64,000 nt of DNA from Escherichia coli (lineage in GTDB: Bacteria; Pseudomonadota; Gammaproteobacteria; Enterobacterales; Enterobacteriaceae), in NCBI RefSeq assembly GCF_045037415.1, contig NZ_CP173438.1; one strand, 5' to 3'. Shown one piece after another: positions 13,545 through 43,160 of the stretch. Made by a program: the position numbers and the translations under genes. Under the pieces are notes generated by a model. That model did not search any database. It had not been told where the DNA came from and saw nothing but the letters and a program-made list of their open reading frames with translations. Numbering within the stretch: position 1 is the first letter of the stretch; the number at the start of each line of letters is the position of its first letter.

Positions 13545-14816
13545 TTAAACCCGCAATAATGCGCTTCCGAGATAATCGTTCGCGTCCTTCACACCCGGCA
13601 GCGCAAAGAAATAGCCGCCACCGATAGGTTTGACATATTCCTCCAGCGCCTCGCCATTCAACCTTTTTTGTACTGTCAGGAAGCCCTTTTCCAGATCGTG
13701 TTGGTAGCAGACAAACAGTAGCCCCATATCGAGTTGCCCGGAATTGGTGACGCCCAACGAATAACTGTAGCCACGACGCAGCATCAGGCTGGACTCGCTC
13801 TCCGCCGTGCGGGGATTCGCCAGCCGGATATGGCTGTCCAGCGCAATCACCTTCCCTTCCGGATCGCTAGCGTAATCGGGAACATCATGCTCATGCTGCA
13901 TGCCCAGCGGCGCACCGGTTTGCTTATCACGACCAAATATCGTCTGCTGCTCTTTCAGCGGCGTTCTGTCCCAAAATTCCACTCGAAACTGAATCAAGCG
14001 TACTGCCTGATAGCTGCCACCGATTGTCCACGCAGGCTCCTGCTGATCTGCCGTCACCCACACCACTTTTTGCATCAACTTCGCATTCTGGCTATCGGGA
14101 TTGGCGGTGCCGTCTTTAAAGCCCAGCAAATTTATCGGCGTCTCTTTGCCTTTACTACGCGCTGCGTGGTCGGAAATAAACCCTTCCCGCTTCCAGCGCA
14201 CGCTGAGCAAATCCGGCGTGTGTTTGATGATATCGCGCAGCGCATGGATCACCGTGTCCTGGGTGTTGGCGCAAATTTGTAGCAACACATCACCATGACA
14301 TAACGCCGCATCCAGCGAGTCGTTGGGGAAACGCGTCATCTTCTGCAACTTTTTTGGCATCTGTGGCGCAAGGCCAAAGCGCTCATCAAACAATGAGTGA
14401 CCCACCGATAACGTGATGGTGAGATTATCGGGCGCAATGTAGCCGCCAAGAATGCCGGAATCGAGTGGTGGCAGGCGCGGATTTGGCGTTTCTGGTGCCG
14501 CTCCGCCCTGAGTCAGAAAAGCAAAACGCTGAGTCAACAAGCGAAACAACCGTTCAAGATCGGCTTTATCGCTGGCAAGCACATCAAACGCCACCAGCAT
14601 CATTGCAGCCTGTTGTGGTGTCAGGATCCCTGCCTGATGCTCACCATAAAACGGCTGTTTCTCATTGCGTGCATCCGGTGAAAGCGTACCCGGCGCACTT
14701 TGCGTTTTTTGTGCATGAGCAACCGGACAACTTCCCGCCAGCGCCAGCGCACCAATCCCTTTCAGTAAACGTCGGCGTGACGGTTCATTCACGCCGTTTT
14801 CATCTTCATACTGCAT
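13545..14816 (-). CDS. efeB: Dye-decolorizing/deferrochelatase peroxidase EfeB (Tat-secreted)
   Basis: 423-aa ORF with twin-arginine signal (SRRRLLKG). Confidence 0.9.
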
Positions 14817-14821
14817 AACGC

Positions 14822-15949
14822 TTAGTCCAGCCCCAGCACACCACGAAGTTGCGCCAGATCTTCCGCCAGCGCAGTAATCGGTCCTTTCAGTGCGTTCCGG
14901 TCGGCATCGGTCAGTTTGTCGTAATTTTCAAAACCCTCTTTAGTGCGGTATTTCGCCAGAATGGTATCGACCTTTTTGAAGTTGGCATCGACTTTTGCCA
15001 ACAGTTCCGGATTCGCTTTTTGTAGTTGTGGACGCAGCAGATCGACAATTTTCTGCGAGCCTTCAACGTTAGCCTGGAAATCCCACAGATCGGTGTGGCT
15101 GTAGCGATCTTCTTCACCGCTGATTTTGCTGGCCGCCACTTCCTCAATCAGTCCGGCTGCACCGCCGACCACTTTTGAAGGAGGGAAAGCCAGTTCACTG
15201 ATGCGTTTTTGCAAATCGACCACATCGGTATAAAGCTGGTCAGCATACTTATCCATCCCTTTGGTGGTGTTATCGCCAAACAATGCTTTTTCCAGACGGT
15301 GGAAACCGGTGAATTTTGGATCGGCGGCTTTTTGCTCGTAATCATCTTCACGGGCGTCAATGCTGCCATCCAGATCGGAGAACAGTTCAGCAATCGGTTC
15401 GATGCGCTCATAGTGCTGCCGCGTCGGCGCATACAGTGCTTTCGCTTTTTCGATATCGCCTGCTTTAATAGCGTCGGTAAAGGCTTTGGTGTCGGTCACC
15501 AGTTGCGTGGTTTCCGCCATGACATACGCTTTATATGCAGTAATTGCACCACCAAGACTTAACAGCGCATCACTTTGCGCCGCATCCGCCGTTGCTTCAC
15601 CTTTGACGATCAACTTCCCTTTCGGGTTAGTCAGCAGACCGCAGGTCATATCGTATTCGCCAGGCTGTAAATTCGCCGTCATTTTCTGGCTAAAACCAGG
15701 GGCGATATTTTCCCGCTCTTCCACCACCATCACGCCTTTGAGGATCTCCCACTCCAGCGCCTTCTGGCTGTGGTTCTGAATAATGAACTGTGTTTTCCCG
15801 GCGTTAACCGTAATGGTCATCGGCTCGCACTGCTTATCTGTCACAGTGACTTTGACTTGCGGAATATCGGCGGCGTTAGCCATAAAAGCAGAAGAGAACA
15901 GCGCAGCCACGCTCAACTGCAATGCGTTACGACGGAAGTTAATGGTCAT
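14822..15949 (-). CDS. efeO: Periplasmic iron-uptake protein EfeO
   Basis: 375-aa ORF with signal peptide; sits between efeU and efeB. Confidence 0.9.
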
Positions 15950-16006: not shown

Positions 16007-16837
16007 CTACACGGAGCGGGACGCAGTCGCCCCTGCGCGTGGTGGCAGAACAAATGCCACCAGCGCCGGGATGAGATAAATAAACCAGACGGCGACTTCG
16101 CTGACGCTCGGTGCTTCCTGATAGCCAAAAATCCCTTCCATCAGTGTGCCAAACAGCGAGTGAGTTGAGAGCACCGCGCTCATATCGAAGGCGATTTCCT
16201 GAAAGTGGTTCCACAATCCGGCTTCATGAAATGCGCGAATGGCACCAGCTGCCAGCCCTGCGGCGACGAAGAGAATAAACAGACTGGTCCATTTAAAAAA
16301 TGCACCAAGATTGAGGCGAATACCGCCCCAGTAGAGCAGGAAGCCAAGCACCACGGCTGTAGCAAGACCGAGCATTGCACCCAGCGGCGGCCAGACCCCG
16401 ACATCTTGTTGAAATGCCGCCAGCAGGAAAAAGACCGACTCCAGCCCTTCCCTTGCAACGGCAAAAAAGACCATCATCACCAGCGCCCAGCCATGATGAT
16501 TTCCACGCTGCAATGCGCTATCGACCGCCTGCTCCAGTTGTACTTTGACGTTGCGCGACACTTTGCGCATCCAGAAAACCATCCAGGTAAGGATCACCAC
16601 GGCGATCACCGCCACAATGCCTTCAAACAGTTCCTGTTCTTTTTGCGGAAATTCGCCGGTGGTTTCGTTAATGAAGATACCCAAGCCCAGGCACAACGCA
16701 GCGGCAAGCAACACGCCAATCCACATTACACCAATCCATCGGCCTCGCTGGGTACGCTTAAGATAGCTGGCAATCAAACTGACAATCAGCGCGGCTTCAA
16801 GTCCTTCGCGCAACATAATGAGAAACGGAACAAACAT
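16007..16837 (-). CDS. efeU: Ferrous-iron permease EfeU (FTR1 family), reading frame intact
   Basis: ORF 16007..16846; start set at ATG 16835-16837 (MFVPFLIMLREGLEA…) giving 276 aa; two REGLE motifs; no frameshift. Confidence 0.85.
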   Translation of the reverse strand: MFVPFLIMLREGLEAALIVSLIASYLKRTQRGRWIGVMWIGVLLAAALCLGLGIFINETTGEFPQKEQELFEGIVAVIAVVILTWMVFWMRKVSRNVKVQLEQAVDSALQRGNHHGWALVMMVFFAVAREGLESVFFLLAAFQQDVGVWPPLGAMLGLATAVVLGFLLYWGGIRLNLGAFFKWTSLFILFVAAGLAAGAIRAFHEAGLWNHFQEIAFDMSAVLSTHSLFGTLMEGIFGYQEAPSVSEVAVWFIYLIPALVAFVLPPRAGATASRSV

Positions 16838-16896
16838 GCCACCCACCCTTAAACGTTTTTCTTAGTCAATCTATGCAAAGAAAAGTAAATCGCAGT

Positions 16897-16958
16897 GATA
16901 GCGATTATCATTACGATGAAGAAAAATACAAGTGAAATGTAGTGATAATGATGAGAAG
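16897..16958. promoter_or_regulatory. Candidate Fur boxes in efeU promoter region
   Basis: GATAgcGATtATCATTAcg (16897-16915) and GATAATGATgag (16944-16955) resemble the Fur consensus GATAATGATAATCATTATC. Confidence 0.45.
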
Positions 16959-16971
16959 ATGTAAAAATATT

Positions 16972-17012
16972 TTGAGAAAAAACGCAGAGGGCAATCACTG
17001 ATTGCCCTCTGC
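16972..17012 (-). terminator. putP rho-independent terminator
   Basis: Stem GCAGAGGGCAATCA/TGATTGCCCTCTGC followed on minus strand by TTTTTT. Confidence 0.7.
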
Positions 17013-17056
17013 CTGCTTCCTGTTATGACGTGAAATTTTCGGTAAAACGCCTTCCC

Positions 17057-18565
<1,509 letters not shown>

Positions 18566-18753
18566 CTAAAGTCTCCAAAAAATTATTATCGGCAATGTCG
18601 AAACTTGCCGTTATATCTGCCACCGGAACGGGGTAACAGAGTTTATGTTTTACCAGGGCGACCGTATCCTGCCGGAAGCGCTGGTTATTCACAATCGATT
18701 TAACACACCATTTACATTAAATTTTAGTGCTCAGCGACACTATTTTTCATCAG

Positions 18754-18961
18754 GTTGCACTCTCTCACATTTTTTGCGGTTGCACCTTTCAAAAATGTTA
18801 ACTGCCGCAGAGAAAAAGTCTGAGTTATTTTTTTAATCCCTGTCATATCGATTTCGTTTATTAACATTTCATTCATTTTTAAGCTTGCTACGCAGGTCAC
18901 ATTTAACATGGTTGCACAAAGTTGCAACATCATGGATATTTCACGATAACGTTAAGTTGCA
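18754..18961. promoter_or_regulatory. put control region with five GTTGCA PutA operator motifs
   Basis: GTTGCA at 18754-18759, 18779-18784, 18911-18916, 18921-18926 (palindromic GTTGCAAC) and 18956-18961 in the putP/putA divergent intergenic. Confidence 0.7.
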
Positions 18962-40345: not shown

Positions 40346-43078
40346 GTGAATTTAACCCTGACCCGAAGACTCTGGATGGGCTTTGCCCTGATGGCGCTGT
40401 TAACCCTGACCAGTACCCTGGTGGGATGGTACAACCTGCGCTTTATCAGCCAGGTGGAAAAAGACAACACTCAGGCATTGATTCCTACCATGAATATGGC
40501 GCGCCAGTTGAGCGAAGCCAGCGCCTGGGAACTTTTCGCCGCGCAGAACCTGACCAGTGCCGATAACGAAAAGATGTGGCAGGCGCAGGGGCGAATGCTC
40601 ACCGCACAAAGTCTGAAGATTAATGCGTTGCTGCAAGCGTTACGGGAACAAGGTTTTGACACCACCGCTATTGAACAACAGGAGCAGGAGATCTCCCGTT
40701 CGTTACGTCAGCAAGGGGAACTGGTGGGGCAGCGTTTGCAACTTCGCCAGCAACAACAGCAACTCAGTCAGCAGATAGTCGCCGCCGCCGATGAAATCGC
40801 ACGCCTGGCGCAAGGTCAGGCGAATAATGCGGCAACCTCCGCCGGAGCGACCCAGGCCGGGATTTACGATTTGATCGAACAACATCAGCGTCAAGCCGCA
40901 GAAAGTGCACTCGATCGGCTGATTGATATCGATCTTGAGTATGTTAACCAGATGAATGAACTGCGCCTTAGCGCCCTGCGGGTGCAGCAAATGGTGATGA
41001 ATCTGGGGCTGGAACAGATCCAGAAAAATGCGCCAACGCTGGAAAAGCAGCTCAATAATGCGGTGAAAATTCTGCAACGTCGGCAAATACGCATTGAAGA
41101 TCCGGGTGTTCGTACTCAGGTAGCAACAACGTTAACTACCGTTAGCCAATATAGCGATTTGCTGGCGCTGTATCAGCAGGACAGTGAAATCAGCAATCAC
41201 CTGCAAACTCTCGCCCAAAATAACATCGCCCAATTCGCGCAGTTTAGTAGCGAAGTCAGTCAGCTGGTCGACACCATTGAGCTGCGTAATCAGCACGGGC
41301 TGGCTCATCTGGAAAAAGCCAGTGCACGCGGGCAATACAGCCTGTTATTGCTGGGATTAGTTTCTCTTTGCGCACTGATTCTGATCCTCTGGCGCGTGGT
41401 TTATCGCTCAGTCACGCGCCCTCTTGCAGAACAAACGCAGGCGCTGCAACGCTTGCTGGATGGTGATATCGACTCCCCTTTCCCGGAAACCGCTGGCGTA
41501 CGGGAACTGGATACCATCGGGCGGCTGATGGATGCGTTTCGCAGCAGTGTTCATGCACTGAATCGCCACCGCGAACAGCTGGCGGCGCAGGTCAAAGCGC
41601 GTACAGCTGAATTGCAGGAACTGGTGATAGAACACCGACAGGCACGGGCGGAAGCAGAAAAAGCCAGCCAGGCAAAATCGGCGTTTCTGGCGGCGATGAG
41701 CCATGAGATCCGCACACCGCTGTACGGTATTCTCGGCACCGCACAGCTGCTGGCAGATAACCCCGCACTTAACGCCCAGCGCGATGATTTGCGGGCGATT
41801 ACCGACTCTGGTGAATCGTTGCTGACCATCCTCAACGATATTCTCGATTATTCGGCTATCGAAGCAGGCGGCAAGAATGTTTCGGTCAGCGATGAACCCT
41901 TTGAACCGCGCCCGCTGCTGGAAAGTACCCTGCAATTAATGAGCGGAAGGGTGAAAGGTCGCCCGATTCGCCTGGCAACAGAAATTGCCGACGATGTACC
42001 GACTGCGTTAATGGGCGATCCGCGGCGTATTCGTCAGGTCATTACCAACCTGTTGAGCAACGCCCTGCGTTTCACCGACGAAGGGCACATTATTCTGCGT
42101 AGTCGCATTGATGGCGAACAATGGCTGGTCGAAGTGGAAGACAGCGGCTGCGGTATTGATCCCGCGAAACTGGCTGAAATCTTCCAGCCATTTGTTCAGG
42201 TTAGCGGCAAACGCGGCGGCACCGGGCTGGGGCTGACTATCAGTAGCCGTCTGGCCCAGGCGATGGGCGGCGAATTGAGCGCCACCAGCACGCCGGAGGT
42301 TGGAAGCTGTTTTTGTTTACGCGTGCCGTTACGTGTTGCCACTGCACCCGTGCCAAAAACAGTCAATCAGGCGGTGCGTCTGGACGGTTTACGTTTGCTG
42401 TTAATTGAAGATAACCCGCTAACCCAGCGGATTACCGTTGAGATGTTGAACAGCAGTGGGGCGCAGGTCGTTGCCGTAGGAAATGCCGCGCAGGCTTTAG
42501 AGACACTGCAAAATAGTGAACCGTTTGCTGCCGCACTGGTGGATTTTGATCTACCGGATATCGACGGCATTACGCTTGCCCGACAACTGGCACAGCAATA
42601 TCCGTCGCTGGTTTTGATTGGCTTTAGCGCCCATGTCATTGACGAAACACTGCGACAGCGTACCAGTTCGCTATTTCGCGGGATTATCCCTAAACCGGTG
42701 CCGCGTGAAGTGCTCGGTCAATTACTGGCGCACTATCTCCAACTGCAAGTCAATAACGATCAACCACTGGATGTATCGCAACTCAATGAAGATGCTCATT
42801 TAATGGGGGCGGAGAAGATCCACGAATGGCTGATATTATTTAAACAACATGCCCTGCCGCTTCTCGATGAAATCGACATTGCCCGCGCCAGTCAGGATAA
42901 CGAGAAAATAAAGCGTGCCGCACATCAGCTAAAAAGCAGTTGCTCGAGTCTGGGAATGCGTAGCGCCAGCCAGCAATGCGCACAACTGGAGCAGCAGCCA
43001 TTATCTGCCCCCCTTCCACACGAAGAAATTACACGCAGTGTTGCCGCTCTGGAAGCATGGTTAATAAGAAAGACCTGA
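40346..43078 (+). CDS. torS: Hybrid sensor kinase TorS; start uncertain
   Basis: ORF track starts at 40139 and overlaps torT; start set at GTG 40346 ([13 protein letters not shown]…); alternative ATG at 40376; HAMP, HisKA/ATPase, receiver and HPt domains. Confidence 0.85.
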
Positions 43079-43160
43079 ACGCGATTTGAATCAATATCAG
43101 CCAGTTAAGAACAACTAGAATAGTGGCATTTGGTATGCAACTTAACGGACTGGCAAAATC

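Follow-up and report, generated by a model that had tools for sequence, protein, structure and literature searches.

In the 64,000-nt stretch of Escherichia coli DNA analysed here (the window), the efeUOB operon (previously ycdNOB) is very probably the wild type of an ST131-type strain of phylogroup B2, outside the K-12 lineage, with efeU present as an uninterrupted gene. An intact efeU of this kind is already known, as the wild-type form of an operon that has been well described and is annotated in public genomes, while the efeU frameshift of K-12 is a textbook peculiarity of that laboratory strain.

The efeU frame and its family

The gene occupies positions 16007..16837 on the minus strand, a strand that the initial annotation left unstated, where 831 nt (276 codons plus stop) are read without interruption from an ATG at 16837 to a stop codon at 16007-16009, giving a protein that begins MFVPFLIMLREGLE. 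The open frame described in the initial annotation is thus found as stated, and so are the two REGLE motifs that it mentioned, at residues 10-14 and 129-133. A mechanical ORF call adds three codons and begins at the GTG at 16846. The ATG start is the one used by RefSeq in sequence-identical records, and the efeU CDS of the sequence-identical strain H105 (WP_000497959.1) corresponds exactly to 16007..16837.

EfeU is a member of the NF041756 equivalog and of the FTR1 family, with full-length coverage. It scores 331.3 bits against the NCBIfam EfeU equivalog NF041756 (cut-off 255; profile positions 1-257 of 257), 348.8 bits against TIGR00145 (cut-off 303.8), and 298.8 bits against Pfam FTR1 (PF03239; E=5e-89, residues 1-275), and because of these scores a chance ORF can be excluded. 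With the yeast permease Ftr1p, EfeU shares the end-to-end model match, two REXXE motifs and several hydrophobic segments. The partners are different: the multicopper oxidase Fet3p in the case of yeast Ftr1p, but a cupredoxin/M75 protein together with a DyP peroxidase in that of EfeU.

In a rough hydropathy scan of EfeU (Kyte-Doolittle, 19 residues per window, threshold 1.6), six clear hydrophobic segments were seen, at about residues 1-24, 32-60, 68-94, 146-173, 177-204 and 242-270. The first REGLE motif sits in a segment above the threshold, while the second lies within WALVMMVFFAVAREGLESVFFLLAAF, in a segment at about 115-140 that remains below 1.6 because of its charged residues. This pattern is consistent with seven transmembrane helices, the number that we take to apply to EfeU. 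A PDB sequence search with EfeU (window 16010-16837, minus strand; phmmer, E<=0.001) matched zero chains, so that the Ftr1/EfeU permease appears to be without a solved structure detectable by phmmer.

The K-12 lesion and the lineage of the window

In the annotation of K-12 MG1655 (NC_000913.3), efeU (b4490) is an 830-nt pseudogene, and it is marked ‘frameshifted’ in another O16:H48 record. The locus and its neighbours are as in the window, with efeO and efeB intact in K-12 as well. Alignment of the window with K-12 efeU showed 97.7% DNA identity, with 18 substitutions and a single 1-nt gap in 831 columns. The lesion is one G missing from K-12 at nt 106 (codon 36), which is undeleted in the window; the K-12 frame ends after 36 residues (MFVPFLIMLREGLEAALIVSLIASYLKRTQRGRWIV*), and when the G is put back a 276-aa protein results that differs from the window EfeU at 3 positions. 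The K-12 gene is therefore the frameshifted pseudogene that the initial annotation had said it was, and not intact after all.

To count the two alleles, a 60-nt probe across the K-12 deletion was compared with 5,379 complete E. coli genomes. The exact deletion junction is present in 368 of them, and about 5,010 (~93%) have the undeleted junction, seen as a one-base gap relative to the probe. All of the 60 exact carriers that were listed, from the total of 368, are K-12 laboratory derivatives (MG1655, DH5alpha, DH1, C600, J53, NCM3722, NEB strains etc.), and on the basis of these 60 the deletion is confined to such derivatives. An intact efeU is the species norm in E. coli. With the undeleted form in ~93% of the genomes and the deletion restricted to K-12 derivatives, an intact gene says only that a strain is not K-12, and it is a weak lineage marker. 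The initial annotation, which took the open frame as the mark of a non-K-12 lineage, was correct about the origin of the DNA but gave the allele more diagnostic weight than it has.

The lineage itself is seen from the surrounding DNA. Over positions 1-25000, the window shows 100% identity to a large number of clinical isolates from humans, among them H105, 81009 and several AR-bank strains, and positions 25001-64000 are collinear with E. coli H105 (NZ_CP021454.1 3005330-3044329) with one mismatch. The PutP, EfeU, EfeO and EfeB protein accessions of the window-identical isolates are also those of MB1159, a record labelled O25b:H4-ST131, and the RefSeq annotation of the efe genes is identical in strains H105, SK1144 and MB1159. 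From the identity and collinearity with H105 and the accessions shared with MB1159, we assign the source of the window to ST131-type E. coli and not to K-12. ST131 belongs to phylogroup B2.

The sole mismatch to H105 in positions 25001-64000 is at 63631, in a region annotated as yccS in H105. The same part of the window contains torS (40346..43089, plus strand, 2,744 nt), which RefSeq marks ‘frameshifted’ in the sequence-identical H105 and in AVS0969. Compared with the intact torS of O157:H7 (2,745 nt), it has a single indel, the loss of one G at nt 2718, near window position 43062. As this deletion lies 27 nt before the normal stop, the open frame still encodes 910 aa compared with 914 aa in the intact gene, and only the last few residues change. 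This is probably a benign C-terminal variant, and torS may be a functional rather than a dead gene.

In principle, a true frameshift in efeU could have been masked by an error of assembly or sequencing, but we consider this extremely improbable and reject it. No support for such a reading of efeU was found. Several complete genomes that were assembled independently share the 1,161-bp efeU region with 100% identity, the surrounding 25 kb are 100% identical in many more, and the undeleted junction recurs in the about 5,010 genomes counted above. Since so many independent assemblies agree, an indel in efeU is unlikely to emerge on resequencing.

The efeUOB operon and its upstream region

The genes efeU, efeO and efeB follow one another in this order and in one orientation (minus), separated by 57 and 5 nt. 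The efeO gene (14822..15949), with its start 57 nt beyond the stop of efeU, encodes a full-length protein of 375 aa, predicted to be a periplasmic cupredoxin plus M75 (imelysin-like) iron-binding protein. It matches NCBIfam PRK10378 with 771 bits over 1-375 of 375, has the Pfam domains Cupredoxin_1 and Peptidase_M75, and is near-identical to E. coli EfeO, whose structure has been solved (PDB 7wgu, ‘Iron uptake system protein EfeO’; E=6e-228). The third gene, efeB (13545..14816), begins 5 nt after the efeO stop and encodes a full-length DyP-type haem peroxidase/deferrochelatase of 423 aa, with 617 bits against TIGR01412 (model name ‘tat_substr_1’), the Pfam domains Dyp_perox_N/C, and near-identity to YcdB (PDB 2y4f/3o72; E<=1e-263). 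A twin-arginine motif (SRRRLLK) at its N-terminus forms part of a Tat signal peptide, and export of EfeB is predicted. All three proteins score above the NCBIfam equivalog cut-offs with end-to-end coverage, and the gene order with the expected families fits the EfeUOB tripartite system. A second lesion was sought in efeO and efeB by family coverage and by comparison with O157:H7, and none was found.

As a functional comparator we used O157:H7 strain 86-24, where the EfeUOB (YcdNOB) genes are arranged in the order efeU-efeO-efeB between putP and phoH, as in the window. Identity is 98.9% for EfeU, 98.9% for EfeO and 99.1% for EfeB, with equal lengths and no indels. The window EfeU differs from the O157/K-12 sequence by V148I, V263A and V276A, which are all conservative and lie outside the REGLE motifs.

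Upstream of efeU, a Fur-box-like operator (CGTAATGATAATCGCTATC, 16897..16915, minus strand) is located 60-78 nt from the ATG and is identical in K-12. It matches the Fur consensus GATAATGATAATCATTATC at 15 of 19 positions; a search for the consensus with <=3 mismatches returned nothing, the site having 4, while direct scoring of both strands gave it the top score and made it the only 15/19 site in the 64 kb. We regard it as a candidate Fur operator, in agreement with the Fur-box-like sequences reported in the initial annotation. Between this site and the efeU start there is a direct repeat resembling a CpxR site (GCAAA-N5-GTAAA, 16875..16889, plus strand), with one mismatch to GTAAA-N5-GTAAA. 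Repression of efeU by CpxR has been reported (described in PMC3852070), and the repeat is consistent with this; as 4 such matches occur in the window where 3.4 are expected by chance, it was rejected as independent evidence.

Further upstream, a sequence resembling a sigma-70 promoter (TTTACA-18-TACATT, 16936..16965, minus strand) precedes the Fur box. It is a consensus match, and the scan proved uninformative, with 1 site in the region compared to 3.1 expected from shuffled sequence. A strong intrinsic-terminator-like hairpin (16984..17012, minus strand; a 13-bp stem followed by a T run) lies just downstream of putP and separates that gene from the promoter region of efeU.

The putP-efeU spacer (16838-17056) measures 219 bp in the window and differs greatly between lineages, so that only the ~110 bp beside efeU are conserved. 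K-12 has nearly the same sequence in this portion, where the Fur box and ribosome-binding region are located, and the promoter-proximal sequence and Fur box of O157:H7 also match those of the window. Beyond about -120 from efeU, the spacer is wholly different from both. In K-12 it is 542 bp long, unrelated to that of the window in this distal part and REP-like by eye; in O157:H7 86-24 it extends over ~2.7 kb and contains an extra ORF for a 447-aa hypothetical protein; and in strain SK1144 an IS1 has inserted beside the putP stop. On the other side of putP, between putP and putA, the window has a 69-aa ORF (18724-18933, minus strand) for which RefSeq gives only ‘hypothetical protein’ (WP_000979522.1), instead of which the tiny ymdG (9 codons including the stop) is annotated in the K-12 spacer.

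Function of the operon and its significance

The efeUOB operon of O157:H7 has been reported as functional (Cao et al. 2007, as cited in PMC7549933 and PMC3852070), and that of K-12 is inactivated by its frameshift; with an in-frame operon in its place, growth improved when iron was restricted (Cao et al. 2007, by way of PMC7549933). We infer that efeUOB is also functional in the strain from which the window derives, which is a sound conclusion given that the genes are intact and their products ~99% identical to the O157:H7 proteins. Published work on O157:H7, Nissle 1917 and repaired K-12 would by extension apply to operon expression, iron transport and the division of labour among the proteins in this strain.

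EfeU would act as an Ftr1-like inner-membrane permease, in which iron is assumed to be bound and handed on by the two REXXE motifs. Its periplasmic partners, which would bind and oxidise iron, are EfeO, a predicted cupredoxin/M75 iron-binding protein, and EfeB, a DyP haem peroxidase presumably exported by the Tat pathway. Together, the three proteins would import ferrous iron when conditions are aerobic, of low pH and iron-limited. Two repressors would control the operon, Fe-Fur through the operator 60-78 nt ahead of efeU, and CpxR when the pH is higher. Repression by Fur and CpxR, and import of Fe2+ under aerobic, acidic and iron-poor conditions, are described in PMC7549933 and PMC3852070. 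Given this literature and the ~99% identity to O157:H7, low-pH aerobic Fe2+ uptake is the predicted role of EfeUOB here.

A different emphasis has been placed on the same proteins, and the matter is debated in the literature, as outlined in PMC3852070. According to proposals noted there, EfeU may carry Fe3+ formed through oxidation of Fe2+ by EfeO, and EfeB (with YfeX) may draw iron out of haem in the periplasm, also in K-12, which lacks EfeU. EfeB is in fact a DyP peroxidase that has been named ‘deferrochelatase’. The sequence does not discriminate between these models, which would refine the mechanism but leave the gene identities unchanged. It seems to us possible but rather doubtful that the system serves mainly to extract haem iron, or to take up Fe3+ formed by oxidation in the periplasm, instead of letting Fe2+ permeate directly.

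We think it very unlikely that, behind the intact genes, the operon of this lineage is unexpressed or of no functional relevance, whether on account of the different spacer or of redundancy with Feo, Sit and siderophores. Such a view could draw on the distal spacer, unrelated to that of K-12 or O157, and on an extraintestinal pathogenic strain with intact efeUOB whose delta-efeOB mutant is described in PMC7549933 as being as virulent as the wild type. However, the absence of an effect on virulence is not equal to an absence of function, the ~110 bp that carry the Fur box and ribosome-binding region are nearly the same as in K-12, and the three ORFs are full length, with conservative substitutions only, in >5,000 genomes. 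The reading of efeUOB as a functional wild-type operon is the one that we favour.

A subtler consequence of the spacer concerns regulation. As the sequence beyond about -120 differs, any distal regulatory input could differ too, and the very short, lineage-specific spacer of the ST131 type (219 bp, with the putP terminator beside the conserved Fur/CpxR core) might change the way in which efeUOB is expressed compared with K-12 and O157:H7, for instance through loss of a distal regulatory site or altered read-through from putP. We consider this improbable; if true, it would mean a different iron-uptake response in the pandemic ST131 clone.

The practical value of the observation is limited, and an intact efeU makes no open question testable. 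It helps to confirm that the window, which matches ST131-type clinical isolates, is not from K-12, and it indicates that this genome keeps a complete operon for ferrous-iron uptake at low pH; in extraintestinal pathogenic E. coli, this operon belongs to a redundant set of several iron systems.
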